64,000 bases of DNA from Pseudomonadota bacterium (GCA_016713725.1 JADJOO010000020.1:4192-68191); one strand, 5' to 3'; shown: positions 1 to 21,815, numbered from the stretch's first letter. Made by a program: numbers and translations. Notes: a model not told the origin generated them from the letters alone.

Positions 1-123
1 AAGAACGGACAGGCCATTCCCGATTTTCTTCCTCACACCTAAGCGGGACGCCTGAAAGGATTTGCGTGCTGGAAATCGATCCTCGGCAGAGGGTCCCTGA
101 CCTGACTACAAGGGTGTGGCGTC

Positions 124-1008: not shown

Positions 1009-1565
1009 TCTGTCGGTGGTCAGGCATGCGCGGCTGCGAGAATAGATGAGGCGCTCCCTGAGCCCATGGTACGAGTCGTACGCAGTCGCTCAGTCGACGC
1101 CAGTCTCATCGAATCAAGTGTCGCTTATCGCGGCGCATATCGATCCTGAATTCCACATGGCGTACTCAGCGCCGGCAGTTACTCGCTGCCACGATCGCTC
1201 GACGCATCAACCTCGACCCTCCGGCTTGTAATGGGCGCAGGATCATGTCACACGCGCTGGCGCAGGCTTGATCTGCGCTGCTTTGGGCGGTGCCGGCGAA
1301 CTCATTGACAAGGCCTTTGCCTCCGTGCACGATATTCGCGAATCTGAACGGTGTTCAGCATTGGACGAGGTCTCGACGAAAGTCCCTGGCGCAGCAGTAC
1401 TGGCCACGGACTCCAGCGTTGAAGCTCACGCGGCAATGCAGCATCGTGCGTGCCCCGGCAGGCGATTGATCGCGTGCCAGGCAGTGCGTAGTCCCAGCAG
1501 GGCTGCCGCTGCATAGGGGCCGCCCGTGATGATGTCTAGTGACAAGAACCGGAGGGTGGTTGCAA

Positions 1566-3973
1566 TGTCTAGTGATTCAGCAGAACGGAATGGTCACTGG
1601 CTGCTGTCAGTTGGCGGCCCATCCTCGGCGCTCGTCGCGATTGCGCTCTGTGCGCCGACCGCGGGCTCGGCGCAGGGCCTGGCGCGAGTGTCGCCGAAAA
1701 AATGCCACGGTCCTGGAGGAGGTCATCGTCACCGCACGCCGGCGCAACGAAGACCTTGCACGCGTTCCGGGGACCATCGCTGTCTTCAACGATGCTCCGG
1801 CTCATCGAACGAGCGATCCGCAGCGATTCCGATCTGCAGTTCGCAATCCTGGCTGACCATTCGTCAGACCAGGGCAACAACTCGCTCACCTACTCGATCC
1901 GTGGGCAGAGCGCGGACACATTCAGTGGTTCTCCGTCCGCGGTCATCGCCTATATGAACGAGGTACCGCTGACCATCGGCAGTGCATCCTCATTCTACGA
2001 CCTCGAATCTATTCAGGTTCTTAAAGGTCCAAGGGCACCCTGTTTGGCAGGAATACGACAGGCGGAGCCGTGCTCTACACCTCGGCAAAGCCGACGAACG
2101 AGAATGAAGCACTCATGCGGGCACGCATGGGGAACCTGGACATGCGTGAAATCGAAGGCATGGTCAATGTCCCCATCGTGGACGACACCGTTCTGCTGCG
2201 GGCCGCTTTCAATTTCATCGAACGCGATGGTTACATTCATAACCGCGCCAACGGCCAGGATCTGGGCGAGATCGATCGCACCAGCGGCCGTCTCTCGCTC
2301 ACGATCAATGCTACCGACAACTTGACCAACGAAACGATGTTCCAGTACGCGGACATTGGTGGCACCAACACGGGCGCGTCCTACACCTACAGCGTCTATC
2401 CCTGCGGTGCGACCAACAATGGCTTTGCACTCACCTGCTCCAGTGGGCTGCTATTCAGCCCGGCACTCGACGCCGTATTCCAGACCCCGGGGGCCTGGGC
2501 TTCCTATCTAGCTGCCAACCCGGGCGCCTACCCTGCGGGCCTCGGGGCCTATGTGGATGAGCAGAAGCGCCTTGGCCCCTATGAAAGTTACTATCCGCTC
2601 GATGCACGGCAGGAAGGCACCGACTGGCTGCTGTCGAACACGACCACCTTCGATTTGAGCGACAAGCTCCAGATCAGGAATATTTTTGGCGCGTCGAAGT
2701 CAGAAACGGATTCTGACAGGCCGCAGATCGGCGCGCCGTTCGTCACCCATCCTCACGGCAAATGTTGCCACCGGCGAGGTAGGCAACGAGAGCGTCGTGG
2801 AGTCGATTTCCGAGGAATTGCAGCTGCAGGGCAAGACGAAAGCGGCAACCTCGACTATATCGTCGGTCTCTATCTCCAGCGCGAGGAGAGCGATACGATC
2901 TGGCCGCAGACCTATTTCGACCTGACCCCGGTTCTGCCGCCGGCTTCCGTCACGAATGCCTTCCACATCGAGAACGAGACCATTGCCCTTTACGCGCAAG
3001 GCATCTGGGATATCTCGTCATGGGTAGAGAACCTGCGCTTCACAGCAGGCCTGCGCTACACGTGGGAGAGCGTGAGCATCGAGCAGCTGCCCCGCGCGAC
3101 GTACACCTATGGTGCGCCAGACCAGGACAACTCGTTCAGCGATCCGAGCTGGGACGTTGGCCTGAATATCAGGCCACGCCTGATCTATTCACGTATATCA
3201 AGACGCGTGGCAGCTTCCGCAGCGGCGGTTTTAACGGTTCTGCGCCGCCAGTCGATGCGAGTGCCGAGGCAGGCGGCAATATCTTTGAGTCCGAGCACAC
3301 GCAGGACATTGAGGCGGGCTTAAAGTCCCGTGGCGACGCCTTCGGGCGCCCTGCCAGTGTCAATCTCGCCGCCTACTACCAGTGGATCCAGGATGTGCAG
3401 CGAGTCGAGTTCCCGGACCCGGACGGGCCCGGCGGCTTGGCTTCGATCGCAGTGACAGCCAATGTTCCGTCGGCTGAGGTCTACGGGCTCGAGCTCGACG
3501 CCACGATCCTGGCGGCTGATTGGCTGCAGCTCGGCGTCACAGGCGCATACACGCACTCCAGCTTCAGCGATGGGCACGTCGAACTGTTCGGGACGTCGTA
3601 TGAATTCGGGCCGGTGGCTAACACACCGGAGTTCGCGGGCACGTTCTTCGCGCTGGTCACCTTCCCGACCAACGGGAATACCGGTGACGTCAGCCTGAGG
3701 GGCGAAGTCTACACGCAGAGCAGCTTCTACTTCTCCAACGCCGCGGATGCCGTGGCGCCGGACACCGAATTGCCCAGCTATTCGTTGGTCAATGGACGTC
3801 TCCAATGGGCGGGCATCATGGGAAGCCATTTGACGGCGGCCCTGTTCGGCAGGAACTTGCTTGACGAGGAGCATTTCGTGGGCGGTATGGCCCTGGCATC
3901 GGCGCTTGGCCACAATGCCGCCGCGGTCGGCGAACCCCGAACCTATGGTTTAGAGCTGTCGTACGAGTTCTGA
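1566..3973 (+). pseudogene. TonB-dependent receptor, at least 6 frameshifts as sequenced
   Basis: The signal peptide, plug (VLEEVIVTARR, IQVLKGP) and barrel ending in the terminal ...YGLELSYEF are spread over ORFs 1526, 1539, 1702, 2070, 2686 and 3020. Frame changes lie near 1690, 1797, 2030, 2750, 2840 and 3170. Confidence 0.8.
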
Positions 3974-4099: not shown

Positions 4100-5091
4100 G
4101 TGGTCGATACGATGCTGATGTTCGATATGCGCGCGCCGTCTTTCGGAGCGTCGCCGCGCGATCTCTATGCGGCAGCACCCGAGATGGCGGCCTATGCCGA
4201 CGAACACGGCATCGCCAGAATTTCCGCTTGCGAACATCACGGTGCAGACGACGGCTACATGCCCTGCAACCTGCTTTTTCTCGCCGCCCTTGCGACACGG
4301 ACAAAACGTGCCCGGCTCATGACGAATGCATTGATTCTGCCACTGCACGATCCGGTCAAGATGGCGGAGCAAATCGCGGTCACCGATCTACTAAGCGGTG
4401 GCCGCCTCGATGTCATTGTGGGCGGTGGGTACGTGCCATCGGAATTCGCCATGTTCGGCGTGTCCCTGGCAGATCGCGGCAGGTTGCTCGACGAAGGCCT
4501 GGAGGTGATGATCCGGGCACTTTCCGGCGAACGATTCGTGATGAACGGGCGGCCGATTTTCGTTCGTCCGCAGCCGTTACAGAAGCCGCATCCGCCGCTG
4601 CTTGTCGGGGGCGGCGTCAAGGCCAGCGCAATCCGCGCGGCACGCTTCGGCGCGGGCTTCTGCCCCTGAACGTAGATCTCTTTGAGGTCTACGATGCAGA
4701 GTGCAGGAAGTTGGGACGAGAACCTGGGCCGAAAATCGTTCTCGGTCAGGCGTGGTGCATTCATGTCGCGGAGGATCCGGACAAGGGCTGGGCCGAACTC
4801 ATGCCATACGCTGCCCACGTCGTGTCGTCTTATGCGCGTATGGCTGCAGAGGCGTCAAACTCTTCGTCGCCGTTTGACGAACTTGTGGGCGACGACGCCG
4901 TACGGAAATCAGGCTTGTTCCACGTTTTTACTCCCGATCAGTGTGTTGCCTATGCGCAGAAGTGCGGAGCGAGGGGGTACACAATGTCGGTTCAGCCGTT
5001 GATAGGTGGCCTTCCGCCTGAGATTGGCTGGCGGAGTCTGGAGCTCTTCTGCACGAAGGTTCTGCCCCGCGTCAACGTCCGCGCTGCGTGA
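4100..5091 (+). pseudogene. LLM-class (luciferase-like) flavin/F420-dependent oxidoreductase, one frameshift near 4660
   Basis: The N-terminal part (ORF 4058-4669) and C-terminal part (frame of ORF 4228-5091) join as ...AARFGAGF/PLNVDLFEVYDAE.... GTG at 4100 follows GGGAGG at 4089-4094. Confidence 0.7.
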
Positions 5092-5190: not shown

Positions 5191-6080
5191 ATGAACTGGA
5201 CCGGCTGGACCGCCGTCATCGGGGACGGGCTGGATAATTTCGCGCACATCGCCTACGAGAAGAAACACCATCTCAAGCTCGGCGGCGGTGTCGCGCGCAT
5301 CTCCTTCAACAGGCCGAAGAAGATGAATGCGCTGTCGCCGGCAGTCATCGAGGAGATGTTTCGCGCATTCTACGACGCCAACCATGACGCAAAGATTGGC
5401 GTGATCGTGGTCGGTGCGCGTGGCAAACACTTCGGCGCCGGCGGCGACGTGGAATGGGAGCAGTGGGGACTCCGCAGCGTTTTTTATAACCGCTATCCGC
5501 ACAATCGGCTCGTGCGCATCTCGCGCAAACCGGTTATCGCGCAGGTGCAGGGCTACTGCATCGGCGGACACAATCACATGGTCTACTGCTGCGACTTCAC
5601 CATCGCGGCGGACAACGCGATCTTCGGCCAGGCGGGTCCGCGCGTCTCCTCGCCGGCGGACGGGTATTTCGTGCCCTACCTGAGCCGGGTCGTAGGTGCG
5701 AAGCGGGCTCGCGAGATGTGGATGCTTTGCCGCAAGTACAAGGCGGAACAAGCCCTGCAGATGGGCCTCGTTAACTCCGTCGTGCCGCTGGAGGGCCTCG
5801 AGGCGGAGGTCGATCAGTGGTGTGAGGAACTGCTGGCTGTCAGCCCGGGATGTCTCGAGGTACTGAAGGCCGCGTTCGACCAGAGATGGATGGCTACAAG
5901 GAGTTCGGCACCATTTCAGCACAGCTGTATCCCGACTGGTTCGAGATGCCTGAGGGTCGGGAAGGTGGAGCGGCCTTCCTCGCGAAGCGCAAGCCGGAGT
6001 TCTGGACTCTCCGGGAGCGCGAAGCCGAGTTACGCCAGCAGTTGTTGCAGGAATACGAGTCGCGGCACGACAAGAAGTGA
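5191..6080 (+). pseudogene. Enoyl-CoA hydratase/isomerase (crotonase) family protein, one frameshift near 5883
   Basis: Crotonase N-terminus (ISFNRPKKMNAL...GAGGDV). The C-terminus continues in ORF 5850-6080 (EMDGYKEFG...EGGAAFLAKRKPEFW). Confidence 0.75.
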
Positions 6081-6123: not shown

Positions 6124-7266
6124 GTGATCAAGGACAAGGCTGCAATCGTCGGCGTTGCAGAAACTGACTTCGCCAAGCGTCTCGAGGGCAGCGAATGCGA
6201 ACTGGCGTCGATGGCGATACTCGCAGCGCTCGATGAAGCAGGAATCGCTCCGTCCGAAGTCGACGCGATGTCGTCGTACACCATGGAGACGACGGACGAG
6301 AACGAAATCGCCAGCAACCTCGGCTTTCGTGATATTCGCTTCTTCTCGCAGGTGGAGTACGGCGGCGGGGCCGGATGCGCTACGGTCCTGCATCTTGCCA
6401 TGGCGGTGGCGACCGGCCAGGCCAACGTGGCCGTGGCCTGGCGTTCCCGCAAGCGAGGCTCGGGGCCGCGGGTGTGGGCAACCACGACGGAGCGGCTGGA
6501 CGACGGATACAAATTTACCCGGCCCTATGGCCTGGTGCGCCCGGTCGATGAGCTGGCGGTGCTCACGCGCCGTTACATGCATGACTACGGTGCGACGCGT
6601 GATCACCTCGCCAACATTGCACTGGCGTGCCGGCGCATGGCTAACAACAACCCGCGGGCGGTGATGTACTCAAAGCCACTTACGCGCGAGCAATACATGA
6701 CCTCGCGGTGGATTGCCGAACCCCTGTGCCTGTACGACAACTGTCTTGAGACCGATGGGGCGCTGGCCTGCGTCATTGTCTCGGCTGAGCGTGCCCGGGA
6801 TTGCCGGCAACGTCCGGTCTACATCCACGCCGGGGCGCAGGGCATGTCTGCACCCCATCCGAGAATGATGAACAACTTTTGTGGGACGCCATTCAGAAGC
6901 CCATCCTACGCGGCAGCGAAGGCGCTCTGGCAGAACAGCGACTTCAAGCAGAGCGACATCAAGGTGGCCCAGATCTACGACGCCTTCACGACCATGGTGC
7001 TGTTGTCATTCGAGGCCTATGGCTTCTGCGGGCAAGGCGAAGGCGCCGCATTCACCGAGAACGGCTCCCTCGAGCTGGGCGGACGACTCGCGCTCAACAC
7101 CAGCGGCGGCAGCCTGTCGGAAGCCTATGTGCATGGGTTCAATCTGATCAACGAGGGTGTCAGGCAGATGCGCGGTACTTCGGTCAATCAGGTGTCCGGA
7201 GCCAACGCGTGCCTGGTGACCAGCGCCGACGACGTGCCGACCGGAGCGCTCATTCTCAGTAACTGA
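6124..7266 (+). CDS. SCP2/SCP-x-type thiolase-like protein (lipid-transfer/thiolase family)
   Basis: GTG at 6124 lies in frame within the artificial 691-aa ORF. Thiolase-like sequence: KDKAAIVGVAETDF..., NTSGGSLSEAYVHG. Confidence 0.8.
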   Translation: MIKDKAAIVGVAETDFAKRLEGSECELASMAILAALDEAGIAPSEVDAMSSYTMETTDENEIASNLGFRDIRFFSQVEYGGGAGCATVLHLAMAVATGQANVAVAWRSRKRGSGPRVWATTTERLDDGYKFTRPYGLVRPVDELAVLTRRYMHDYGATRDHLANIALACRRMANNNPRAVMYSKPLTREQYMTSRWIAEPLCLYDNCLETDGALACVIVSAERARDCRQRPVYIHAGAQGMSAPHPRMMNNFCGTPFRSPSYAAAKALWQNSDFKQSDIKVAQIYDAFTTMVLLSFEAYGFCGQGEGAAFTENGSLELGGRLALNTSGGSLSEAYVHGFNLINEGVRQMRGTSVNQVSGANACLVTSADDVPTGALILSN

Positions 7267-7293
7267 TGCAGCAATCATGGCGGGCGACGAAAA

Positions 7294-7731
7294 ATGATCG
7301 AGTCGTGGCCACTGCCCACGACGGATGGCCACGATGCACCGTTCTGGCAGGGGGCCGGGCGCGGTGCGCTCGTGATGGAAGCGTGCAGCAATTGCGGTGA
7401 GTTGCGCTTTCCGCCGCGCCCCATGTGTCCGTGCTGCCATTCGCGGCAGCGGGAGTGGCGCGAGCTTTCCGGCCGCGGCCGGATTTGGTCGTTCATCGTT
7501 TCGCACCCCCCGCTGTTCCCAGTATTTAATCCCCTGGCGCCTTATAACGTCATCATCGTCGAACTCGACGAAGAACCCACCATCCGGCTTGCAGGGAATC
7601 TCGTCAGCGACCCACAGGGTCCGATAAACAGCGTGAGCGCTGACACGATCCGGATCGGTGAGCCGGTGCAAGCGGTTTACGCGCCCATGACCGAGGACGT
7701 GACGCTGATCCGCTGGGTGCGGCGGGGCTGA
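7294..7731 (+). CDS. DUF35 OB-fold/zinc-ribbon protein (thiolase partner, BbsA/ChsH2-C-terminal type)
   Basis: Four-Cys ribbon CSNCGELRFPPRPMCPCC followed by an OB-fold region. It lies immediately downstream of the SCP2-type thiolase. Confidence 0.8.
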   Translation: MIESWPLPTTDGHDAPFWQGAGRGALVMEACSNCGELRFPPRPMCPCCHSRQREWRELSGRGRIWSFIVSHPPLFPVFNPLAPYNVIIVELDEEPTIRLAGNLVSDPQGPINSVSADTIRIGEPVQAVYAPMTEDVTLIRWVRRG

Positions 7732-7853
7732 GATCGCTAAGGCTGATGTCCAGCATTCCTGATCCGGGTCGAGCCCGTGACGGGCTGCAGTGGCACGCTG
7801 GTGGTCGGATACTCGATCCGGCTGGATTTGCTATCACGAGTGGAGGTCTGACC

Positions 7854-8648
7854 GTGCAACTGTCCGATTACAACTCGATCACCTTTCGACGCGACGGGCG
7901 CGTTCTGAACGCCACCTTCAATCGGCCCGAGACGCTGAATTCCATGGATGCTGAGATGCAGCACGAGGTCGCCCGACTGTTTCCGGAGGTGGCCACGGAC
8001 CCGGAGACGAACGTGCTCGTGATCACCGGTGCAGGTCGTGCATTCAGCGCCGGCGGCGACGTCGAGCTCATGCAGGGCATGATCGATCGTCCGGCGCTCT
8101 TCGTCGAGGCGACGGCTCACGGCAAGCAACTTCTCCATTCGATCCTCGATTGTCCCAAGCCAGTCATCGCCAAGATCAATGGCCCGGCGATCGGGCTTGG
8201 CGCCACAATCGCCCTGTTCTGCGACCTGATTGTCGCGGCGAATCACGCCAAGATCGCCGACCCGCACGTCAGGGTCGGGCTGGTAGCCGGTGACGGCGGG
8301 GCGGCGATCTGGCCGCAACTCGTCGGCTATGCCCGCGCCAAGGAGTACCTGCTCCTGGGCGATACACTGACGGGCGAGCAGGCCGCCAGCATCGGGCTGA
8401 TCAACCGCGCCGTTCCCGCCGAGGACCTCGACCGGGTTGTGGATGAGATCGCGCAGCGGCTGGCGAGCGGTGCGTCGCGCGCCATTCAGTGGACTAAGCT
8501 CGCAGTGAACATCCGGCTCAAGCAAGTTGTGAATGCGGTGATCGAAGACTCGTTCGCGTACGAAGCGCTTTCGAGTCAGACGAAGGACCACCAGGAAGCC
8601 GTGAATGCATTTCGTGACAAGCGCCAGCCTCATTTCTCCGGTGAGTAG
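7854..8648 (+). CDS. Enoyl-CoA hydratase/isomerase family protein
   Basis: ITFRRDGRVLNATFNRPETLNSMD...ITGAGRAFSAGGD. GTG at 7854 is preceded by GGAGG at 7842-7846. Confidence 0.85.
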   Translation: MQLSDYNSITFRRDGRVLNATFNRPETLNSMDAEMQHEVARLFPEVATDPETNVLVITGAGRAFSAGGDVELMQGMIDRPALFVEATAHGKQLLHSILDCPKPVIAKINGPAIGLGATIALFCDLIVAANHAKIADPHVRVGLVAGDGGAAIWPQLVGYARAKEYLLLGDTLTGEQAASIGLINRAVPAEDLDRVVDEIAQRLASGASRAIQWTKLAVNIRLKQVVNAVIEDSFAYEALSSQTKDHQEAVNAFRDKRQPHFSGE

Positions 8649-8732: not shown

Positions 8733-8761
8733 TTGGCAGTACTGTTACTATTTTGTATATT
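8733..8761 (+). promoter_or_regulatory. Sigma70-like promoter TTGGCA-N17-TATATT in an AT-rich island upstream of the acyl-CoA synthetase gene
   Basis: Near-consensus hexamers with 17-nt spacing, inside the only AT-rich stretch (8738-8792) of the 250-bp intergenic region. Confidence 0.45.
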
Positions 8762-8899
8762 AAAAAACTGAACGGTGATCTGATAATTGAACCAGGCCGG
8801 TCGAAGTGGAAGCCTGTTGGGTGTGATGTGGAGATGGGCAGCAAAATGGCCGGCGCAGGAATCCCGACCATGACGAACTGACAGTCCGGGGAGGGCACA

Positions 8900-10570
8900 A
8901 TGGCCAAGCACAGTTTCCCTAGCTTTTCCGATGCCTACCGCAAGCGTTGGCGTGACGCCGGACTGTGGCTGGACGTGACGCTGCACCACGGATTCGACCA
9001 GACTGTCGCGGCGCAGCCAGACAAGGTGGCGCTGATCACCGCGGATCAAAGCTACACGCTCGCGCAATACAAGGCCGAATCCGATGCACTGGCCGCAGGT
9101 CTCCTGGGGGTCGGCATCGGGCCGGGCGACATCGTGGCTGTGCAGTTGCCGAACTGGGCCGAGTTCTGCTTTCTGCAGATCGCGCTATCGCGCATCGGCG
9201 CGGTCATTCAACCCATCCATACCGTCTTCCGCGAGCGCGAGACAGCCAATCTCCTCAGTCTCTGCGAGAGCGACGCGATCGTTGTCCCCGATACCTACAA
9301 GGACTTCGGCTTTGCGGACATGGTGCGCTCGCTGCGGCCCCAGCTCCCCGCGTTGCGCAAGGTGATAGTCGCTCGGGGTGAGGCGCACGCCGCGGCGGGC
9401 GAGTCGAACCTGAGCGATCTGATGGAAGAAGGCCGCCGCAATCTGCAGCGCCTGGCCGACGTCAAGACTACGGCAGACGACATCTACTACCTGAACTTCA
9501 CCTCGGGTACGGAGGGAAACCCCAAAGGCTTTCTGCACGTGCACAACGCCGTGATCTCGATGACCAAGCGGCTCATTCCGCTCATGCCGCCGGAAACCGT
9601 CATGCTGGCGTGCTCACCCATGACGCATACGTTTGGCCATTTCGAGATGTATTACACGGACCTCGCCGGTTTTCCCATGGTGGTGGTCGACCGTTACAGT
9701 CCCGGTGAAATCCTGACCCTGATCGAACGTGAGCGCGTGACCAAGCTCTCAGGAACGCCGGCGCATTTCTTCGGCCTGCTGCACCACCGCGATTTCGCCA
9801 AGTTCGACACGTCGTCAGTCAAGTCGGTCGCGGTCGGTGGGGCCCGCAGCTCGCCGGACCTGATCGCAGATCTGGGCCGCGTGTGGGGAGTGAAGTCTGC
9901 AAACACCTACGGCATGGGCGAGACCATCATCCATACCAGGACCGTGCCGGACGATCCCGAGGAAAGGATACGCAGCACCGTGGGCCGTCCGATATTCGGC
10001 GTCGAACTCAAGATCGTCGACCAGAAAGACCGCACGGTCGTGCAGCCGGCCGGCACCATCGGCGAGATCTGTTTCCGCGGCCCGACGCTATTCGTCGGTT
10101 ATCACAACCTGCCCGGGAAGACTGCCGATACGCGCGATGCGAACGGCTGGTTCTACACCGGCGACCTCGGCTACGTGGACGAAGCTGGCTATCTGTATTT
10201 CGTCGGGCGGGCCAAGGAAGTCATTAACCGCGGCGGCACCAAAATACATCCGAAGGAGATCGAGGATCTGCTGTGCCAGCATCCGGCCATACTCCAGGCC
10301 GCCGTGGTCGGTATGCCGGATGAGCGGCTCGGTGAGCGCGTTTGTGCCTATGTAGTCACGCGCGACGGCCACGAAATCAGCCTCGAGGAAGTTGGCCAGT
10401 TCTGCTGCGAGCGCAAGGCGACGAAATACCTGCATCCCGAGGTGCTCGTGCGCATCGAGGAGATGCCGATGACTCCGACGGGAAAAATCCAGAAGGTTGC
10501 GTTGCAGAAGGACGCAGTCAGTCGAGCGACCCTTTCCCGGGCAACAGCCGACCCAGCGCCCGCCGGCTGA
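8900..10570 (+). CDS. AMP-dependent acyl-CoA synthetase/ligase (class I adenylate-forming enzyme)
   Basis: Motifs YLNFTSGTEGNPKG, YGMGET, TGDLGYVDEAGYLYFVGRAKEVINRGGTKI. Confidence 0.9.
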   Translation: MAKHSFPSFSDAYRKRWRDAGLWLDVTLHHGFDQTVAAQPDKVALITADQSYTLAQYKAESDALAAGLLGVGIGPGDIVAVQLPNWAEFCFLQIALSRIGAVIQPIHTVFRERETANLLSLCESDAIVVPDTYKDFGFADMVRSLRPQLPALRKVIVARGEAHAAAGESNLSDLMEEGRRNLQRLADVKTTADDIYYLNFTSGTEGNPKGFLHVHNAVISMTKRLIPLMPPETVMLACSPMTHTFGHFEMYYTDLAGFPMVVVDRYSPGEILTLIERERVTKLSGTPAHFFGLLHHRDFAKFDTSSVKSVAVGGARSSPDLIADLGRVWGVKSANTYGMGETIIHTRTVPDDPEERIRSTVGRPIFGVELKIVDQKDRTVVQPAGTIGEICFRGPTLFVGYHNLPGKTADTRDANGWFYTGDLGYVDEAGYLYFVGRAKEVINRGGTKIHPKEIEDLLCQHPAILQAAVVGMPDERLGERVCAYVVTRDGHEISLEEVGQFCCERKATKYLHPEVLVRIEEMPMTPTGKIQKVALQKDAVSRATLSRATADPAPAG

Positions 10571-10597
10571 CGGCCACCGCCAACACGCAATCAGAGG

Positions 10598-11038
10598 ATG
10601 AGCATGGACGAAACACCGGAAGAGCGATTCGCGCGTGGGATGGAGACCCTGCAGAAGGTCTTCCCGCTCGGCTCGGGCGCCATGCCGCAGTTCCGCTATC
10701 CAGCAGAGATTGAGAGCGACTGGGGCCAATTCTCCGTGTCGACCGTGCTCGGCGACGTCTGGTCACGACCGGGGCTGGAGTTGAAGCATCGAGCCATGAT
10801 CGCCATTGCGGCGCTGGCGGCGCTGAACAAGCCGGGATCGTTGAAGGCCTACATCATCGCGGGCCTGAAGCAGGGACTGTCGCGAAACGAAGTGTGCGAA
10901 ATCATCTTCCAGATGGCGATCTACGCGGGTTTCCCTGCTGCGATCGAGGCCTTCGGTCATGCGCGTGAGGCGTTCGAACAGTTCGACCTGGCATCCGGCC
11001 CCGGCGCGAAGTCCGGCGCAACGGATCCGGGGGCGTAG
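10598..11038 (+). CDS. Carboxymuconolactone decarboxylase (AhpD-like) family protein
   Basis: CMD-family sequence (VWSRPGLELKHRAMIAIAALAALN...EVCEIIFQMAIYAGFPAA). Confidence 0.75.
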   Translation: MSMDETPEERFARGMETLQKVFPLGSGAMPQFRYPAEIESDWGQFSVSTVLGDVWSRPGLELKHRAMIAIAALAALNKPGSLKAYIIAGLKQGLSRNEVCEIIFQMAIYAGFPAAIEAFGHAREAFEQFDLASGPGAKSGATDPGA

Positions 11039-11385
11039 CAAATGGTGCCCGTAAGCGGCTTCGTCCGCCGCATCGTGAACGACGATCCGAATCGTTACAT
11101 CGACTGTGCCGCTGTCCCAGCACGCTCGGGTATTGCAGCTCGCATTTCGACGATTCGCTGCCTCGCCTTCGGCTGACCGATTCGGAGGGCCCGGATGTCC
11201 TCGCATGCGGGACCGCATTGGCGTGTTTGACCCCGCGGACCTGGTCAGTGTAACTTGAACGCTGTTCTGATATAGAAATGCAGACGCGGGCGTGACGGCG
11301 TCTCGTCCCGGAGGTGGATTGCGTCGCTGGACCAGGGCGCGGGCCGTCAGGCGGGCCTCAGGGCCGGAGCAACGCGGAGGCATCG

Positions 11386-12177
11386 ATGGATCTTTTCTCA
11401 CTCAGCGGCAGGGTTGCGCTCGTGACCGGCGCGTCGCGGGGACTTGGCAAGTCCATGGCGCAGGCTCTGGCACGTGCTGGAGCGACGGTAGTGCTGACGG
11501 CCCGTGATGTGGCGCGCCTCGAGGAGGTCGCCAGTGAGATCCGCCGTGAGGGGCACCAGGCTCACGTGGACGCATTTGATCTGCTAAACGAGGAAGCGGT
11601 GGTGGCTGCGGTCCCCAGAGTCGTCGAGCGCTTCGGACGCCTGGACATCCTCCTCAATAACGCAGGAATTTACGTCACGAGCAAGTTGCTGGATTCGACG
11701 CTGGAACTCTGGCACCGCACGATGGATACCAACCTCACGGCTGCGTACCTGCTGGCGCGTGAGGCGGCGCGGTCGATGATCCCCCAGAAGTCCGGTCGCA
11801 TCATCAACGTTGGCTCATATTGCTCGGTGCTGGGCAGGGAGCGCATGCAGGCCTATGCCGCGAGCAAGCACGGTCTTGCGGGACTCACCAAGTCGCTGGC
11901 CGGCGAGCTTGGGCGCTACGGCATTAACTGCAACGCCATAGCGCCCGGTTACTTCATGACCGACATGATCGAGCGGGTGGCCGATGACGCGGACCTGATG
12001 CAGGCTTTTACTGGCGCGATTGCCCTCAATCGTTTCGGCCGTCCGGACGAGGTTTGCGGTGCAGCGGTCTTTCTGGCCTCGGATGCCGCGTCCTACGTCA
12101 ACGGCCACATTTTGCATGTCGACGGCGGCGTGGCGAACGTCGTCTGCATCCGGCCGGTCAGAAGTCCCAAGCCGTGA
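11386..12177 (+). CDS. SDR-family oxidoreductase
   Basis: VALVTGASRGLG Rossmann motif and YAASKHGLAGLTKSLA catalytic motif. ATG at 11386 lies within ORF 11314-12177. Confidence 0.9.
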   Translation: MDLFSLSGRVALVTGASRGLGKSMAQALARAGATVVLTARDVARLEEVASEIRREGHQAHVDAFDLLNEEAVVAAVPRVVERFGRLDILLNNAGIYVTSKLLDSTLELWHRTMDTNLTAAYLLAREAARSMIPQKSGRIINVGSYCSVLGRERMQAYAASKHGLAGLTKSLAGELGRYGINCNAIAPGYFMTDMIERVADDADLMQAFTGAIALNRFGRPDEVCGAAVFLASDAASYVNGHILHVDGGVANVVCIRPVRSPKP

Positions 12178-12479
12178 TCCACTGCGGACCGAGGCAGGTG
12201 ATGCAGTACCGGGGTATGACGACGGCGTCGTGCGCGGCATCGATGAATTCGAGTGCCGATCCGTTGTTCGTACGGGCGGCGACTACTGCATCGAATTCGA
12301 CAGGCGCGACTGGGACCAGTTCAACGCGGCCCAGTACCCGGACGCGCGTTGGAATACCGGGCTGCCATTTGATACGTTCAACTGCGACGAACGAACCGGG
12401 AAAGCGGCTAATGACGTGCTATACGCTGTGTGGCGTGACTCTCATCACCTGGCGACGAATCCAAGGCTGACGTTCAAGT

Positions 12480-13094
12480 ATGAGCTGCTGGGCGCTAGTA
12501 CCGATCAAGGCTCGTCCCGAGTGCAAGGGTCGGTTGTCCGGCTGGCTTGCGCCTTCGGAACGAATCGACATCGTGCGGGAGATGGTCGGACGCGTGCTGG
12601 CAGCCCTGCGGGATGCACCCTCGATCGACAGCATCGCCGTCGTGACACCCGAGCGTGACTGGTTGCGCCCCGAGGTGCTGGTACTCGACGACCCGGGCCG
12701 TGGTCTCAATGCGGCTCTCGATTCAGCTCGTCGCGAACTCATTGTGCGGGGCATCGACGAACTCGTCGTGCTGCATGCCGACCTGCCGTTCGTCACTGCG
12801 ACCGACATTGAGTTGCTGGTGTCCAGGGGTCGGCGCACCGGATTCGCGCTGGCGTCAGACTCCGCTTGCTCGGGCACCAACGCGCTGTATCTCGCGCCGC
12901 CGGCGGCCTTTCGTTTTTGCTTCGGCGTGGACAGTTGTCGTCAGCACCTGCAGGAGGGTGCCCGCCTCGGCCTGACGGCCGAACTCGTTCACACGCGTGG
13001 CCTCGAATTCGACCTGGATCGAGGCGAAGACCTTTTGCAACTTTGCGAACAGGGCGATGCGCGGTTCACGTCCTTGAAACTTCTGCCGGCTTGA
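12480..13094 (+). CDS. cofC: 2-phospho-L-lactate (or PEP/3-PG) guanylyltransferase CofC/FbiD
   Basis: ALVPIKARPECKGRLS, GRGLNAAL, HADLPFVT and SGTNALYLAPP motifs. The stop overlaps the fbiC ATG (TGATG). Confidence 0.8.
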   Translation: MSCWALVPIKARPECKGRLSGWLAPSERIDIVREMVGRVLAALRDAPSIDSIAVVTPERDWLRPEVLVLDDPGRGLNAALDSARRELIVRGIDELVVLHADLPFVTATDIELLVSRGRRTGFALASDSACSGTNALYLAPPAAFRFCFGVDSCRQHLQEGARLGLTAELVHTRGLEFDLDRGEDLLQLCEQGDARFTSLKLLPA

Positions 13095-15506
13095 TGGATA
13101 TGGCTGCAACCGACTCATTACGGCTGATCGACGCTGCCGCCGCGGGCCAACGGCTCGACAGTACGGCGGCGGCGCTGCTGGTGCATGCGCCGCTCGCATC
13201 GCTCATGCACACCGCCGAGGAGCTGACCCTGGCCGGCTTCGGTTCGACGGTCAGCTACTCGCGCAAGGTCTTTATCCCGCTCACACAGTTGTGCAGGGAT
13301 GTCTGTCACTACTGCACGTTCGCGAAGGCGCCGCGCCGCCTCGCGCAGCCCTACCTGTCGCCGGATGAAGTATTGGCGATCGCGCGGGCGGGCCAGGCCC
13401 ATGGTTGCAAGGAAGCACTGTTCACGCTGGGCGACAAGCCGGAATTGCGCTATGCCGTGGCTCGCCGCGCGCTCGCTCAGCACGACGCCGTAACGACACT
13501 CGAATACCTCGAGCGGATGGCAGTGTTGGTGTTCCGCGAGAGCGGCTTGCTGCCGCACCTCAATCCGGGTGTCATGAATCGCGAGGAACTCGCACGCCTG
13601 CGGCCGGTCGCAGCCTCGATGGGGCTGATGCTGGAGTCGGGCGCCGAGCGGCTGGCGATGCGCGGTGGCCCGCATTTCGGCTCGCCGGACAAGCAGCCGA
13701 CGCAGCGTCTAGCGACGCTGCGCGCGGCAGGTGAACTCAGTATACCCGTGACGACTGGCCTGCTGATCGGCATCGGCGAAACCCGCCGCGAGCGGCTGGA
13801 GTCGCTACTTGGGCTGCGGGCGCTGCACGAGGAGTTCGGCCACCTCGGAAATCATCATCCAGAATTTCCGCGCCAAGCCGGGGACTCGCATGGCCTCCGG
13901 CGCCGGAGCCGACGCTCGAGGAGCAGCTCTGGACTATCGCGGTCACACGATTGCTGTTTGGTCCTCGGATGTCGATCCAGGCACCGCCGAATCTTCAGCC
14001 CAATGCGCTGGTACCGTTGCGGTCCGCCGGAATCAACGACTGGGGCGGCGGGTCACCCGTGACGCCGGATCACGTGAACCCGGAGGCGCCGTGGCCGCAT
14101 CTTGCGGCACTGGAGCGCCAGACGGAGGAAGCAGGGCGGGAACTCGTCGAGCGTCTTGCAATTACGCCCGCGTACGTGCGCGATGCGGGTCGCTGGGCAG
14201 ACGAGGGCATGGCGCGGCACATCCGCCGCATGAGCGATGCGCGGGGTTACGCGCGAACGAATGCATGGTTTGCCGGATCGGCTTCAGCGATCCCGGATGA
14301 GGCGGCGAACTGGATGTCGGGCGGTCCGCGCACTGTGGCCGGTCGGGGACGCCTGACTTCGATCCTCGCGGCAGCGCAGGCCGGACGGGATCTAGCCGAA
14401 CAGGAGATTGTTGAACTCTTTACGGTCGCGGATCACGACCTTCCGGCGGTGCTTACGGCAGCCGATGAACTGCGCAGAGTCGCCGTCGGCGAGACGGTGA
14501 CATACGTCGTCAACCGCAACATCAACTACACGAACGTCTGCAACTACCGTTGCGGGTTCTGTGCCTTTCGAAGGGGCGGAGTGCAAGGGGCCTGCGTGGC
14601 CCTGCGTACGATTTGTCCCCTGACCGAGATCGCGGAACGGACGCGCGAGGCCGCTGCGGTGGGTGCTACGGAGGTCTGCCTGCAGGGCGGCATCCACCCG
14701 AGTTACACGGGCGAGACCTATCTTCGTATCGTACGCGCAGTCAAGGAAGCGGTACCGTCGATGCACGTGCACGCATTCTCGCCGCTCGAGATCCGACACG
14801 GCGCCGCGACGCTGGGACTTGAGCTGCGGGAGTATCTGTCGCGGCTCGCCGCTGACGGACTCTCGAGCCTGCCAGGGACCGCGGCAGAGATTCTGGATGA
14901 CGAGGTGCGTAGAGTCATCTGCCCGGACAAGCTGACGACGTCAGAGTGGCTGGAGACGGTAGCTGATGCGCATGCCGTGGGGCTCAGGTCGACCGCAACG
15001 ATCATGTACGGCCATGTGGACGCGCCGGTGCACTGGGCACGTCACCTGCTGCGAGTCCGCGCGCTGCAGGCAGCGACTGGCGGGATCACCGAGTTCGTGC
15101 CGTTGCCGTACGTCCACATGGAGGCCCCCCTCTGGCGCCGCGGTCTCACGCGTTCGGGGCCGACCTTCCGCGAGGCGGTGCTGATGCACGCGGTCGCGCG
15201 ACTCGTGCTGCATCCGCTGGTGACAAACATCCAGGTCTCGTGGGTCAAGATGGGGCCCGAAGGCGCGGCGCTGTGTCTGCGAGCCGGAGCCAACGACCTC
15301 GGCGGAACTTTGATGAATGAATCGATCAGCGCGCGGCCGGTGGCGTGCACGGTCAACTGCTGACCCGCGAGCAGCTCGCGGCCATTGCTGCTAGCCTCGG
15401 ACGGCCGATCCGACAGCGCACAACGTTCTACCAGAGCACTGAGCAGAAAGTGGCGTGTGGTGGTTCGCGTCGCGTCGCTGCTGCAGCCGCCGATTCGTTC
15501 GCCTGA
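13094..15506 (+). pseudogene. fbiC: Bifunctional FO synthase FbiC (CofG+CofH radical-SAM domains), at least 5 frameshifts as sequenced
   Basis: CofG half (CRDVCHYCTFA...) and CofH half (NYTNVCNYRCGFCAF..., GGTLMNESIS). Frame changes lie near 13850, 13900, 14570, 14620 and 15340. The C-terminus (...GRPIRQRTTFYQS...) ends at TGA 15504-15506. Confidence 0.8.
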
Positions 15507-15614
15507 ATTTCGACGTGACCTGCTTGAAATACGGCTACAACGCGTCGGCCGGTCCATGGTCTCGACACGGTCGGAGCATCAAGGCGCGATCTAATCTTTC
15601 GGAGCACCATCGGT

Positions 15615-16298
15615 ATGAATGAGGCGACCTTCCCTGTAGTTGCTGTCATCGGCGGCACAGGCAACCTTGGTCACGCCCTTGCCAGGCGCTGGGCGCAGGC
15701 CGGCTACACGCTGGTGCTTGGGTCGCGTGACTCCGTCCGCGCCGACGCCGCGGCGACGGCAATGCGAGATGCGGTTCCCAATGCCAGGGTGCGAGGCCTT
15801 ACGAATCGAGATGCAGCGCTTGCGGCCGATATCGTTGTTCTGGCCGTGCCGTACGCTTCGCAGGAGGCAACCCTCGATGAGATTCGGGACGCCGTACAAG
15901 GCAAGTTAGTGGTCGACACAACCGTGCCACTTGTGCCGCCGAAGGTCATGCGCGTGCAACTTCCTCCGGAGGGTTCGGCGGCAGTTCGAGCACAGGGACT
16001 CCTGGGGCCGGCTGTGACGGTCGCCTCTGCGTTTCACAGCACAGCCGCACATCGATTGGAGACCGATGACACGATTGATTGTGACGTATTGGTCTTTGGT
16101 GACTCAGGGAAGCGCGTGATCGCGTCATGGGAGCTCGTCTCGGCAGCGAGGCTTCGCGGCCTTCATGGCGGCGCATTGGCGAACTCGGCTGCCGCCGAGG
16201 CATTGACGTCGGTCCTCATCTTCATCAATAAGCACTATACAGCCGACGGGGCTGGCATCCGCATCACAGGAAAGCTGATCCCACCCGCACCAGGTTGA
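15615..16298 (+). CDS. npdG: NADPH-dependent F420 reductase (Fno/NpdG)
   Basis: VAVIGGTGNLGHALARRWAQAGYTLVLGSRD plus a family-like C-terminus, inside the F420 cluster. Confidence 0.8.
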   Translation: MNEATFPVVAVIGGTGNLGHALARRWAQAGYTLVLGSRDSVRADAAATAMRDAVPNARVRGLTNRDAALAADIVVLAVPYASQEATLDEIRDAVQGKLVVDTTVPLVPPKVMRVQLPPEGSAAVRAQGLLGPAVTVASAFHSTAAHRLETDDTIDCDVLVFGDSGKRVIASWELVSAARLRGLHGGALANSAAAEALTSVLIFINKHYTADGAGIRITGKLIPPAPG

Positions 16299-17074
16299 GT
16301 GTGATGGCCAGCGCGTCGCTGATTTTCCATGCGCTGCCCAGCATTCCGGAGATTGCGCCGGGAACCGACCTTGCGTCGATCGCGGAGCACGCACTGCTGG
16401 CCGCCCGGATCGAGGTGCGCGCTGGCGATGTACTGGTTTTCGCGCAGAAAGTCGTCTCCAAGGCTGAAGGCCGCTTGGTGCGGCTCCGTGACGTCCAGCC
16501 TTCGAGCCGGGCGCTGGAACTCGCAGCGCGCTGCCTGAAAGACCCGCGACTGGTGGAACTGGTCCTGGCCGAATCGAGCGAGGTGGTCCGGGTCGCGCCC
16601 AATGTCCTGGTGACCCGACACCGTTGTGGATACGTCATGGCCAATGCGGGCATCGATCATTCGAACACCGGTACGGCACCGGATGCCGGTGTGGTGCTGC
16701 TCCTGCCGATCGACGCTGATGCATCCGCGCGCGCGCTGTGCAGCGCGCTCCGAGCCCGGCTCGGCATCGCTCCGGGCGTGATCGTCAGCGACAGTTTTGG
16801 CCGGCCGTGTCGCATGGGAACGGTCAATGTCGCGCTGGGTGTGGACGGGTTGCCGTCAATCGTGGACATGCGTGGTGGGTGCGATCGCGACGGGCGCAGG
16901 CTGCAGGTCACTCAGGTAGCGATCGCAGACGCCATTGCTGCCGGTGCAGGCCTGGCCATGGGCGAGGCCGCCGAGGGAGCGCCGATCGTGCACGTGCGGG
17001 GCTTTGCGTCGACCGAGCCATGCAGTGACGGCCAAGCACTGATCCGCCCGGCGAAGGAGGACCTGTTTCGGTGA
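16295..17074 (+). CDS. cofE: Coenzyme F420-0:L-glutamate ligase CofE (single domain, no FbiB-type C-terminal nitroreductase domain)
   Basis: VFAQKVVSKAEGR, VMANAGIDHSN, VIVSDSFGRP.R.G..NVALG motifs. Overlaps the npdG stop and the cofD start. Confidence 0.85.
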   Translation: MSVMASASLIFHALPSIPEIAPGTDLASIAEHALLAARIEVRAGDVLVFAQKVVSKAEGRLVRLRDVQPSSRALELAARCLKDPRLVELVLAESSEVVRVAPNVLVTRHRCGYVMANAGIDHSNTGTAPDAGVVLLLPIDADASARALCSALRARLGIAPGVIVSDSFGRPCRMGTVNVALGVDGLPSIVDMRGGCDRDGRRLQVTQVAIADAIAAGAGLAMGEAAEGAPIVHVRGFASTEPCSDGQALIRPAKEDLFR

Positions 17075-18045
17075 CCAAGACTGCGAAAGTGCTCGCCATC
17101 TCGGGTGGCATCGGTGGCGCCAAGCTGGCGCTTGGTTTGCAGCGCGTGCTGCCGCCGGGCGACCTTGCCGTGCTCGTGAATACCGGCGACGATTTCCGGC
17201 ATCTCGGGCTCGCGATCTCGCCCGACCTTGATACGGTGCTCTACACATTTGCCGGCGTTGCCAATGCCGGGGCCGGTTGGGGTCGCGAAGGCGAAACCTG
17301 GAATTTTCTCGAGGAACTGCGTCGGATCGACGGCCCAGCCTGGTTCCAGCTGGGCGACCGCGACCTCGTGGTCCACGTCGAGCGGACGAGCCGGCTGGCC
17401 CTCGGTGAGTCACTCACTTCGATCATGGCCGCCCTCGGCCGCCGATTCGGCGTGCCGAGTGCGATCCTTCCGATGACCGACGACGCGGTGGCCACCCTGC
17501 TCGACACGGACGCCGGAGTGCTGGAGTTCCAGGAGTACTTCGTGCGCCGGCGTTGTGAACCGAGGATTCGTGCCGTGCGGTACGCAGGGGCCGCAACCGC
17601 TACCGCAAACCCGGCGTTGACCGGGCTGCTGGCGTCGCCGGAGCTGGAATGCGTGGTGATTTGCCCGTCGAATCCGTACCTGAGCATCGGACCGGTCCTC
17701 GCGATCGCTGGGTTGCGCGACGCCCTGGCCCGCTGCCCCGTCCCCGTCGTGGTGATCTCGCCGATCATCGGCGGGCGCGCGGTCAAAGGGCCGACGGTCA
17801 AGCTGATGCGTGAACTCGGTGTCGATGTTTCACCACGATCCATCACGGAGCACTATGCAGGCCTCATCGACGGCCTCGTGGTCGATTCCGAGGACATGGC
17901 GTTTGCATCGGCCACTGGGGTGCCTACGCTAGTGACGCCAACGCTCATGCAGACCCTTGTCGACCGCGAGGCACTGGCGCGGGCCGCGCTCGGTTTCGCG
18001 GCATCGCTGGCGGCCGCGCCGCGGTTGCCGAGAACTGTACCGTAA
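17071..18045 (+). CDS. cofD: 2-phospho-L-lactate transferase CofD/FbiA
   Basis: VLAISGGIGGAKLALGL...VNTGDDF.HLGL.ISPDLDTVLYT. GTGA overlap with cofE. Confidence 0.9.
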   Translation: MTKTAKVLAISGGIGGAKLALGLQRVLPPGDLAVLVNTGDDFRHLGLAISPDLDTVLYTFAGVANAGAGWGREGETWNFLEELRRIDGPAWFQLGDRDLVVHVERTSRLALGESLTSIMAALGRRFGVPSAILPMTDDAVATLLDTDAGVLEFQEYFVRRRCEPRIRAVRYAGAATATANPALTGLLASPELECVVICPSNPYLSIGPVLAIAGLRDALARCPVPVVVISPIIGGRAVKGPTVKLMRELGVDVSPRSITEHYAGLIDGLVVDSEDMAFASATGVPTLVTPTLMQTLVDREALARAALGFAASLAAAPRLPRTVP

Positions 18046-18197
18046 GCGGCTACGCCGCTACTTCCGCGTCTCCGTATCAGCCCGGCCAACCTGTGCAGCC
18101 TGGCTGCGCGCTTCACTATCCGCCGGCGACACTTTGACGATGCTTTCGTCGTCGCTGTTCCGCGCGCCGGTAGGACTCAGCCCGAGGAGTAGCCCCT

Positions 18198-18326
18198 GGC
18201 GATCGATCCAGTCGTTCTTCCCGAGCTTGGAAAGGCAGACACGCGCCCGGGAAGAACGACTGGATCGATCGCCTGCGGCACGGCGCCTGGGCTCGTCCTC
18301 GGCGCGCCGAAAACTGCGCACGGCGC
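18198..18326 (-). repeat. Two-hairpin repeat element, copy A (3' of the minus-strand TBDR gene)
   Basis: Perfect 26-bp stem (18198-18223 / 18248-18273) around a loop containing GCGCGTGTCTGCCTTTCCAAGCT (sense orientation), plus a 5' module at 18284-18326. The same loop and 5' module recur at 24171-24292. Confidence 0.7.
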
Positions 18327-18372
18327 ACGGTGCGTCGAGATGTGGCAACCCCAGCGTATGAGTCCGGTGGGC

Positions 18373-20463: not shown

Positions 20464-20504
20464 GAACTCCCGGCTTCAACCGACGGGCGGTGCTCCGGGT
20501 CCGG

Positions 20505-20533
20505 AGACTATCCGGCGGTATGATGTTTATCAA
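20505..20533 (-). promoter_or_regulatory. Candidate sigma70 promoter of the TBDR gene (TTGATA-N17-TAGTCT on the minus strand)
   Basis: The -35 hexamer (20528-20533) lies inside the NikR-type palindrome. The -10 hexamer is at 20505-20510. Confidence 0.4.
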
Positions 20534-20545
20534 ATAAGTGCATAC
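20518..20545. promoter_or_regulatory. NikR operator-like palindrome GTATGA-N16-GCATAC
   Basis: One mismatch to the E. coli NikR operator GTATGA-N16-TCATAC. The arms extend as GGTATG...CATACC. It sits in the divergent TBDR/nikR intergenic region. Confidence 0.65.
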
Positions 20546-20571
20546 CCTAACCCGGCCGTGGAGGCCTCCAG

Positions 20572-21145
20572 ATGCAACGCACGACGATCACGCTCGACGA
20601 CGACTTGATGGAGCGGCTGGATGAGTTCATGGCGGATCGCCGCTACGCCAACCGCAGCGAGGCCATTCGCGACCTGGTGCGCGCCGGCCTCGAGCAGTCG
20701 ACCCTCGATGGCGCAGCCGACGCGCAGTGCCTCGGGGCGGCCATCTACGTCTTCGATCACAACGCCAGGGAGCTCGCGAGCCGGCTCACCCACGCAGCGC
20801 ACGATCATCACGACCTGTCGGTCGCGACGCTGCACGCACCTCGATCACGACAGCTGCATGGAAGTCAACGTCCTGCGCGGGCAAGTCGGCGATGTTCGTC
20901 ACTACGCCGATCACGTCATTGCGGAGCGTGGTGTCCGGCATGGGCGCCTCGTGCTGGTGCCTGCTGAATTTTCGACGGAAACCCATGCGCATGGCGGTGC
21001 GAAGCTTTCGCGACACTCGCATTTGCACGTCAAGCGATCCCTAGGCGGGGCTTCGCCTCATTGCTTGAATGGCCAGAGATCTCGTCGCAACGATCAAACG
21101 GGCGGACTGCGGATAACCGCAGGTCGCGGACCGCGCCCGCCCTGA
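20572..21145 (+). pseudogene. nikR: Nickel-responsive regulator NikR, one frameshift near 20835; 3' end uncertain
   Basis: RHH N-terminus MQRTTITLDDDLMERLDEF...NRSEAIRDLVR. The C-domain HDLSVATLH / HLDHDSCMEVNVLRGQVGDVRHYADHVIAERGVRHGRL continues in the frame of ORF 20621. Confidence 0.8.
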
Positions 21146-21216
21146 CCTAGACTTTCTTCACGAACGCCCGCTGGACACAAAGTCGCAGGACCCACCTCTG
21201 GGTCACGCTGCTGCTG

Positions 21217-21567
21217 TTGCCCGCCCTGGCGTGTCGCATGCTGGTGCCGCCTGGTTTCATGCCGGGCACCGGTGCAGATCATTCGCCCACGATGCAGATG
21301 TGCCACGGCGCCGGGCCGCTGCCGCAGGGCGCGCAATCGCCCGCAAAGGATGATGGACAGCGGCCTGGGAGTCCTGCGCATCACGAATCGCCTTGCGTCT
21401 TTGCGGCCGCCGGCACGGCTGCGCCACCACCGATCACGTTGGCGGTTCTGGATGGTCCCGCAACGCCAGACGCCATTCCGTCGCCACCGGACCTCGCCGT
21501 TGTCTTCCGGACACCGCATCGCGCCAACCCGCCCAGGGCGCCTCCCACCATCGTCAGCCCCGCCTAG
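21217..21567 (+). CDS. DUF2946-family protein (copper-uptake associated)
   Basis: LLLLPALACRMLVPPGFMP...MQMCH...HHESPCVF pattern, directly upstream of an OprC-like TBDR. The start codon is unclear (TTG 21217). Confidence 0.55.
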   Translation: MPALACRMLVPPGFMPGTGADHSPTMQMCHGAGPLPQGAQSPAKDDGQRPGSPAHHESPCVFAAAGTAAPPPITLAVLDGPATPDAIPSPPDLAVVFRTPHRANPPRAPPTIVSPA

Positions 21568-21815
21568 GGCTCGACTGCCCGTTTGAGGCTGGGCGCCTGC
21601 ATTGGCGCCCCGGCCTCGGCCCGCCGGGCATCCGCTGTCCTGCCCGTAGTTCCATCTCGACCGCTGCACACATGAGCGGCGGTCGTGGGCTGCGCATGGC
21701 ATCGCGATGAATCGGTGACAGCCAACCGCAACGACACCGGGCGGTGCTTGAAGGCGACCCAGCGGGGCCTCGGCAAAGCTCCCACTCCTTGATTTTGATT
21801 TTGGAGTCTGAAGAC

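Follow-up and report, generated by a model that had tools for sequence, protein, structure and literature searches.

A probably functional coenzyme F420 operon, with frame breaks in fbiC as assembled, beside a catabolic gene cluster in a Steroidobacteraceae metagenome-assembled genome

In the present study, we analyzed a stretch of 64,000 nucleotides (nt), hereafter the window, from a Pseudomonadota bacterium (GCA_016713725.1, JADJOO010000020.1:4192-68191; contig C20:4192-68191), in which open reading frame (ORF) listing and family scans identified the coenzyme F420 genes cofC-fbiC-fno-cofE-cofD as one block on the + strand at 12480-18045. As a whole, the data are best explained by a functional F420 operon with frame breaks that arose as consensus errors of the assembly and with candidate F420 users in the island around it, and we regard this explanation as very likely. 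The host is a Steroidobacteraceae gammaproteobacterium from soil, the genome of which (4.14 Mb, 41 contigs, 93.5% complete) is a long-read metagenome-assembled genome (MAG); the closest tblastn-confirmed relatives of its CofD are encoded in Steroidobacteraceae MAGs.

Results

Organization of the F420 operon

Four of the five operon genes exceed the cut-offs of their NCBIfam families, the exception being fbiC as assembled. The genes are as follows.

12480..13094, + strand: cofC/fbiD, guanylyltransferase activating the C3-acid side chain, 204 amino acids (aa); TIGR03552, 138.5 bits (cut-off 105)
13094..15506, + strand: fbiC, fused CofG-CofH FO synthase, 803 aa when read through; NF006687 in pieces
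15615..16298, + strand: fno, NADPH:F420 oxidoreductase, 227 aa; TIGR01915, 174.3 bits (cut-off 149.8)
16295..17074, + strand: cofE, F420-0:gamma-glutamyl ligase, 256-259 aa depending on the start codon; TIGR01916, 247.5 bits (cut-off 180.65)
17071..18045, + strand: cofD/fbiA, transferase joining the activated side chain to FO, 324 aa; TIGR01819, 280.5 bits (cut-off 257.45)

Stop and start codons overlap at cofC/fbiC (TGATG), fno/cofE (TTGA), and cofE/cofD (GTGA). These scores and junctions bear out the first-pass annotation of this DNA, which had proposed a complete co-directional operon with overlapping stop and start codons and fno inside the block, and all five genes lie where it had placed them. 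Judging from family membership, FbiC would form the deazaflavin FO from tyrosine and 5-amino-6-ribitylaminouracil, and CofC would activate a C3 phospho-acid with GTP, its residues pointing to 2-phospholactate (2-PL) or phosphoenolpyruvate (PEP). CofD would then move the activated acid onto FO, the single-domain CofE would add the glutamate tail, and Fno would charge the cofactor F420 with NADPH.

Frame breaks in fbiC

When fbiC was translated in three frames and aligned to intact relatives, five frame breaks were located, at approximately 13847 (-2 nt; frame 2 to 0 after EEFGHL), 13897 (+1; 0 to 1 after GTRMA), 14566 (-1; 1 to 0 after CGFCAF), 14617 (+1; 0 to 1 ahead of LTEIAER), and 15329 (-1; 1 to 0 after NESIS). 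The breaks previously suspected in this gene are present in the assembled sequence, and their number is five instead of the two or three that had been implied. As assembled, fbiC matches NF006687 in two pieces of 345.7 and 629.6 bits, against a cut-off of 1018. The read-through protein of 803 aa retains both radical-SAM motifs (CRDVCHYC and CNYRCGFC), contains zero in-frame stops, and shares 57-64% identity with the intact FbiC of relatives across its whole length. A search of the genome for a second FO synthase found none, leaving fbiC as its sole FO synthase locus.

A search with the read-through FbiC retrieved P0001, an intact FbiC of 804 aa that shares 96% identity with the read-through product of the window gene and scores 1137.6 bits against NF006687, above the cut-off. 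The 44-kb contig encoding it, which stems from another metagenome (ENA ERZ25039461; hereafter L104), is colinear with the window over 3097-18152 at 98.15% nt identity, with 13 gap openings in the alignment. The genes for the TonB receptor, a luciferase-like (LLM) oxidoreductase (330 aa), a crotonase (296 aa), a thiolase (380 aa), the DUF35 protein, FbiC (804 aa), and Fno are continuous in L104. Among the 12 coding indels that separate the two sequences, 11 leave the window copy broken or garbled, and a single one breaks that of L104 (one-sided binomial P = 0.003); those specific to the window are located at 3164, 4661, 5884, and 7294, at five sites in fbiC, and at 16105/16129 in fno. This last, compensating pair garbles eight codons of fno, where FGDSGKRVIASWELVS in the window corresponds to FGDSRETRDRVMELVS or a similar sequence in L104 and relatives, and the family consensus agrees with the L104 reading.

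In fbiC, two indels alter the length of a homopolymer (TTTT to TTT and CCC to CCCC), and three of the 13 indels between the window and L104 are within CCAGG. The case for a methylation motif as the cause of the indels is at most suggestive and is not relied on here: over the whole genome, the enrichment of CCWGG at indel sites is no more than 1.9-fold, and GATC shows none. Programmed frameshifting in fbiC was rejected, given that the five sites are unlike one another, that L104 carries an uninterrupted orthologue at 98% identity, and that indels of the same sort affect unrelated genes. A codon-usage model that maps frames without a reference served as a guide only, because its output was noisy in the island, where codon usage is unlike that of the genome.

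Between the window and L104, fbiC carries 18 synonymous and nine non-synonymous changes, with a ratio of non-synonymous to synonymous divergence (pN/pS) of 0.18. The corresponding ratios are 0.06 for the LLM gene, 0.11 for the TonB receptor gene, 0.13 for the crotonase gene, and 0.04-0.46 for intact neighbors; that of cofC, the product of which is 99% identical to its L104 orthologue, is 0.04. If fbiC had evolved neutrally since the split, approximately 27 non-synonymous changes would be expected, against nine observed (P = 5e-5), and the pattern of substitution is one of purifying selection.

Frameshifts are also widespread outside the window. In a tblastn search of the genome with 1868 long intact ORFs, 131 of the 621 paralogous target loci (21%) were frameshifted, with 191 switches in 779 kb (0.245/kb) spread over almost every contig, and three of the eight RND pump genes are fragmented. 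Duplicated contig ends, which total 145 kb at 86-99% identity, contain 1458 gaps of 1 nt, 311 of 2 nt, and 63 of 3 nt; the ratio of 1-nt to 3-nt gaps of 23:1 points to consensus indel error, not to the divergence of coding sequences. These noisy ends repeat sequence from other contigs, as in C38/C39/C10, C36/C24, C37/C1/C23, and C17/C5.

Since L104 provides an intact twin, the indels are biased to the window, pN/pS is low, and frameshift noise is genome-wide, we consider with high confidence that errors in the consensus of this noisy long-read MAG, and not mutations, produced the breaks in fbiC. The breaks in the LLM, TonB receptor, crotonase, nikR, and fno genes are likewise read as consensus errors. 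The inactivation of fbiC that the first-pass annotation had allowed for is not what the intact L104 copy, the pN/pS of 0.18, and the genome-wide frameshifts indicate, the breaks being most likely errors of assembly.

Catabolic neighborhood and predicted F420 users

Upstream of the operon, family scans confirmed the adjoining cluster for CoA-thioester catabolism that had been described before. Its features, including one gene that only ends in the window, are as follows.

1..55 (3' end; whole gene C20:3650-4246), + strand: FDOR-A, Ddn-like deazaflavin-dependent reductase; PF04075, 122.9 bits, and TIGR00026
124..1008, + strand: IclR-family regulator, PcaR/BhcR-like by NCBIfam; Pfam IclR_C and HTH_IclR
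1268..3973, + strand: TonB-dependent receptor fragmented by indels, one of them at 3164; two ORFs covering profile positions 23-224 and 225-436; intact in L104 (803 aa)
4100..5091, + strand: LLM/LLHT luciferase-like oxidoreductase, candidate F420-dependent enzyme; Pfam Bac_luciferase; 1-nt deletion at 4661
5191..6080, + strand: MenB/BadI-like crotonase (296 aa in L104), from family scans and L104; 1-nt deletion at 5884
6124..7266, + strand: SCP-x-type thiolase ("lipid-transfer protein"); NF005892, 531 bits (cut-off 469)
7277..7731, + strand: DUF35/ChsH2-like OB-fold partner of the thiolase; Pfam OB_ChsH2_C and zf-ChsH2
7746..8648, + strand: enoyl-CoA hydratase; Pfam ECH_1
8900..10570, + strand: acyl-CoA ligase, similar to medium-chain/cyclohexanecarboxylate-CoA ligases; family scans
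10598..11038, + strand: CMD (PcaC-like) family protein; family scans
11314..12177, + strand: SDR oxidoreductase; family scans
12230..12479, + strand: conserved small ORF located 5' of cofC; 99% identical in L104

The ORF of 691 aa at 5191-7266, which had been taken for an enoyl-CoA hydratase-thiolase fusion, is an artefact: the 1-nt deletion at 5884 joins two genes that are separate in L104 (296 and 380 aa). The small ORF at 12230-12479 has no stop before it runs into cofC and matched no Pfam or NCBIfam family; its homologues, at 41-44% identity, adjoin LLM or F420 genes at two other loci (L048 and L017). To the left of the window, C20:1-4246 contains a fragmented acyl-CoA dehydrogenase gene, a fragmented gene similar to OYE/2,4-dienoyl-CoA reductases, and the FDOR-A gene, and these extend the catabolic island to the end of the contig.

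Two products of the island are candidate users of F420. FDOR-A matches PF04075 over the full profile and TIGR00026 at 99.5 bits, exceeding the cut-off of 46.35, and its gene is the sole PF04075 match in the genome (C20:3848-4231). As regards the LLM protein, the best-scoring family for the uninterrupted L104 orthologue of 330 aa is TIGR03619 (F420-dependent, Rv2161c family), at 128.1 bits across positions 37-197 of a 247-position profile and ahead of the FMN-type LLM families; the genome has three LLM loci, and the window gene is its best TIGR03619 match and its only TIGR03619-like LLM gene. The earlier placement of this protein in a family that includes F420-dependent enzymes was upheld in so far as its best match is such a family, with the qualifications that the gene is split at 4661 and that the score is below the TIGR03619 cut-off of 166.9. 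A search of the genome for FDOR-B returned nothing over the cut-off. In the relatives with the closest cofC/fbiC (L017/G007, L061, L075, and L099), the operon is likewise flanked by homologues of the LLM or FDOR-A gene.

All recognizable F420 users of this organism are located beside its biosynthesis genes. Considering this neighborhood, the likeliest use of reduced F420 (F420H2) is in one or two reductive steps of the beta-oxidation-like CoA-thioester pathway of the island. An F420-dependent step in the catabolic pathway had been hinted at in the first-pass annotation, and this suggestion is supported at the level of gene neighborhood.

Island composition and horizontal exchange

The GC content of the island is 0.628, compared with 0.657 for the genome, and its codon usage scores poorly under a model trained on the genome. 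Identity to L104 over 3097-18152 (98.15%) is higher than over the adjoining chromosome at 24171-29519 (92.6%), and synonymous divergence is three to five times lower in the island (pS of 0.02-0.08) than in the right flank (0.13-0.22), which points to recent exchange between lineages. The operon lies at the end of this low-GC, apparently recently exchanged island. F420 genes were found in five of the 25 genomes of the genus and in five of the 16 other families of the order. One same-genus locus (L017; G007:C8:18885-21120, from a fragmentary MAG) has the order LLM-cofC-fbiC-fno, with cofE/cofD on the opposite strand at a distance of 4 kb and a frame switch in fbiC.

Beyond the operon, a 6-kb segment at 18153-24170 (TonB receptor, nikR, DUF2946, and an OprC-like TonB receptor) is missing from L104, in which an amino-acid permease gene directly follows cofD. 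The ends of this segment coincide with copies of a hairpin repeat (18198-18326 and 24171-24292), and the arrangement suggests that it was gained or lost by recombination between the repeats. A second copy of the segment is found at the end of contig C30 (G000:C30:1-5214; 89-93% identity, 2% gaps), with different genes beyond it. In the window copy, nikR (20572-21145) is split across two frames, with NikR_C profile positions 2-36 and 34-77, probably by a further consensus indel.

Side-chain precursor and reductase

In an alignment of CofC to 7P97 and 6BWG, the positions of S162, M91, C95, and H145 of 7P97, the 3-phosphoglycerate (3-PG) enzyme, are occupied by Gly, Leu, Leu, and Ser, so that none of the residues of the Mycetohabitans type is kept. 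The Mg-binding Asp residues, in HADLP and in the D-x-D pair, and the carboxylate-binding Ser that contacts the substrate, in FGVDS, are conserved and correspond to D116, D188/D190, and S166 of 6BWG. A Ser or Thr at the S162 site marks the acceptance of 3-PG, and the substitution S162G abolished the preference for 3-PG (PMC8764529). Since Gly takes the place of Ser162, and Leu, Leu, and Ser those of M91, C95, and H145, CofC is predicted to be of the 2-PL/PEP type, and the formation of 3PG-F420 is unlikely. The identity of the precursor, which the first-pass annotation had left open among three acids, is narrowed to PEP or 2-PL; in vitro assays of CofC separate 2-PL from PEP only with the cognate CofD (PMC8764529).

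CofE is, as had been claimed, the short single-domain type (259 aa) without the C-terminal FMN domain of FbiB: it contains a lone Pfam F420_ligase domain and no nitroreductase domain, and matches NF009810 only over profile positions 8-243 of 449. A reductase of the FbiB C-terminal type was searched for with TIGR03553 in the whole genome, and no match was obtained at E <= 0.01.

Discussion

Several points weigh against the explanation preferred here. The call of artefact is based on comparisons of assembled sequences, and the breaks in fbiC are not directly disproved for this strain. Five of the 11 coding indels are in fbiC, which accounts for 16% of the aligned length (P = 0.02), a distribution that is somewhat more clustered than uniform error; the pN/pS of this gene leaves room for a loss of function during about the final half of the branch; and L104 is itself long-read-like, with a frameshift of its own in the SDR gene. 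The LLM score is short of its family cut-off, and the case for F420 use by the catabolic enzymes is built on neighborhood. The genome is 93.5% complete and noisy, which makes the absence of a reductase for dehydro-F420-0 weak evidence.

Among the alternatives, the one that fares best concerns the side chain and assumes a PEP route as in mycobacteria, in which dehydro-F420-0 would be reduced by an enzyme that is not of the FbiB C-terminal type, possibly the FDOR-A, the LLM protein, or the product of the ORF at 12230-12479. The residues of CofC are of the type that accepts PEP or 2-PL, 2-PL has no known bacterial source, and in Gram-negative bacteria, Ca. Entotheonella among them, CofC prefers PEP when paired with its cognate CofD (PMC8764529), whereas CofC from Paracoccus and Oligotropha favored 2-PL in vitro (PMC8764529). 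The lack of a TIGR03553 match at E <= 0.01 is in line with a different reductase, and a conserved ORF directly 5' of cofC recurs at two other F420 loci; however, the candidate reductases are putative, the absence of a reductase fits a 2-PL route equally well, and the genome is incomplete and noisy. We regard the PEP route as plausible, at somewhat short of an even chance.

A second alternative is that fbiC is a true pseudogene, and that the strain, producing no FO itself, scavenges FO released by its neighbors and completes F420 with the intact cofC, cofD, and cofE, or is losing the pathway together with the broken LLM and TonB receptor genes. This would account for five breaks within one 2.4-kb gene, a clustering that is mildly significant (P = 0.02), while cofC, cofE, and cofD read through; moreover, fbiC is the only FO synthase locus of the genome, and the fbiC of the same-genus genome G007 is likewise frameshifted. 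However, G007 is itself a fragmentary MAG, similar 1-nt indels occur in fno, the crotonase, DUF35, and nikR genes, RND pumps, and 21% of the genes sampled, 803 codons are free of in-frame stops at a pN/pS of 0.18, and an intact copy exists at 98% nt identity in L104. Furthermore, five indels against approximately 27 substitutions far exceed the usual ratio of indels to substitutions in neutral bacterial DNA, which also counts against decay, and we consider this alternative improbable. The formation of 3PG-F420 as in Mycetohabitans rhizoxinica, a route that dispenses with a reductase and would account for the single-domain CofE and the failure to find a reductase in the genome, is highly improbable because, even though the 3-PG enzyme 7P97 is the top PDB sequence match of CofC (E = 1e-13), Ser162 is replaced by Gly and M91/C95/H145 by Leu/Leu/Ser, and S162G abolished the preference for 3-PG (PMC8764529).

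A functional operon with consensus errors in fbiC remains our preferred explanation, and the seeming decay of a cofactor gene through the noise of a MAG serves as a caution; calls of pseudogenes, gene fusions, and split genes in this genome need the support of reads. That proteobacteria carry F420 genes, with a fused FbiC, a CofE of one domain, and Fno encoded nearby, is established (Ney et al., 2017; Braga et al., 2019; reviewed in PMC8498797), and the rarity of such an operon implied by the first-pass annotation did not hold. The operon is common in Alpha-, Beta-, and Gammaproteobacteria, with 353 tblastn-confirmed CofD relatives and 8000 FbiC homologues found, and databases contain thousands of FbiC homologues, some of them annotated from Steroidobacteraceae MAGs. 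The five-gene F420 operon is ordinary for proteobacteria. A 2021 review of F420 makes no mention of Gammaproteobacteria, and with the present operon one further lineage of this class is predicted to produce F420.

Next to nothing is known of what F420 does in Proteobacteria (PMC8498797), and an operon in a catabolic island that contains the only FDOR-A of the genome and an F420-type LLM represents a concrete place to test such a role. We tentatively propose that the island, of approximately 22 kb, is a self-contained, horizontally mobile module that couples the supply of F420 to F420H2-dependent reductions by FDOR-A and LLM in a pathway for alicyclic or steroid-like acids fed by the TonB receptor, and that an unassigned island protein (FDOR-A, LLM, or the product of the ORF at 12230-12479) replaces the missing dehydro-F420 reductase. 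The BadI/MenB-like crotonase, the SCP-x thiolase with its DUF35 partner, and the other CoA-thioester enzymes are the features on which the proposed pathway is built. This proposal in its full form is rather unlikely in our estimation; if true, it would provide the first defined physiological role of F420 in Gammaproteobacteria. The source of a saturated side chain in Gram-negative producers with a single-domain CofE and neither the FbiB C-terminal domain nor FbiE is a general question (PMC8498797), of which this operon is a case.

Among known systems, the mycobacterial pathway of FbiD, FbiA, FbiB, and FbiC (PMC6450877, PMC7253369) shares with the present operon the fused FbiC, and CofC has Leu92, Gly163, Ser166, and the Asp ligands of FbiD from Mycobacterium tuberculosis in common; in contrast to that pathway, CofE is without the FMN-dependent domain at the C-terminus by which dehydro-F420-0 is reduced, the genes form a single operon, and Fno is found, not Fgd. 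Mycetohabitans rhizoxinica, which produces 3PG-F420 (10.1101/670455; PMC8764529; 7P97), resembles the present host in being Gram-negative, in its single-domain CofE, in having no reductase, and in Fno as the sole F420 reductase, whereas the diagnostic CofC residues S162, M91, C95, and H145 all differ. In Thermomicrobium roseum, for which a stand-alone, nitroreductase-like FbiE has been described (Braga et al., 2020, cited in PMC8498797), CofE and the reductase are unfused, as CofE is here; however, no homologue of FbiE or the FbiB C-terminal domain was detected by the TIGR03553 search of this genome.

The clusters of Paracoccus denitrificans and Oligotropha carboxidovorans (Ney et al., 2017, as summarized in PMC8498797) share the fused FbiC, stand-alone CofC, CofD, single-domain CofE, and adjacent Fno, likewise without the FbiB C-terminal domain and with a patchy distribution resembling horizontal gene transfer. 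The gene order here is cofC-fbiC-fno-cofE-cofD, whereas most of the 80 proteobacterial loci compared have fno-cofE-cofD-cofC-fbiC. The present operon further differs from the known proteobacterial clusters in its gammaproteobacterial host and in its link to a catabolic island with FDOR-A and LLM.

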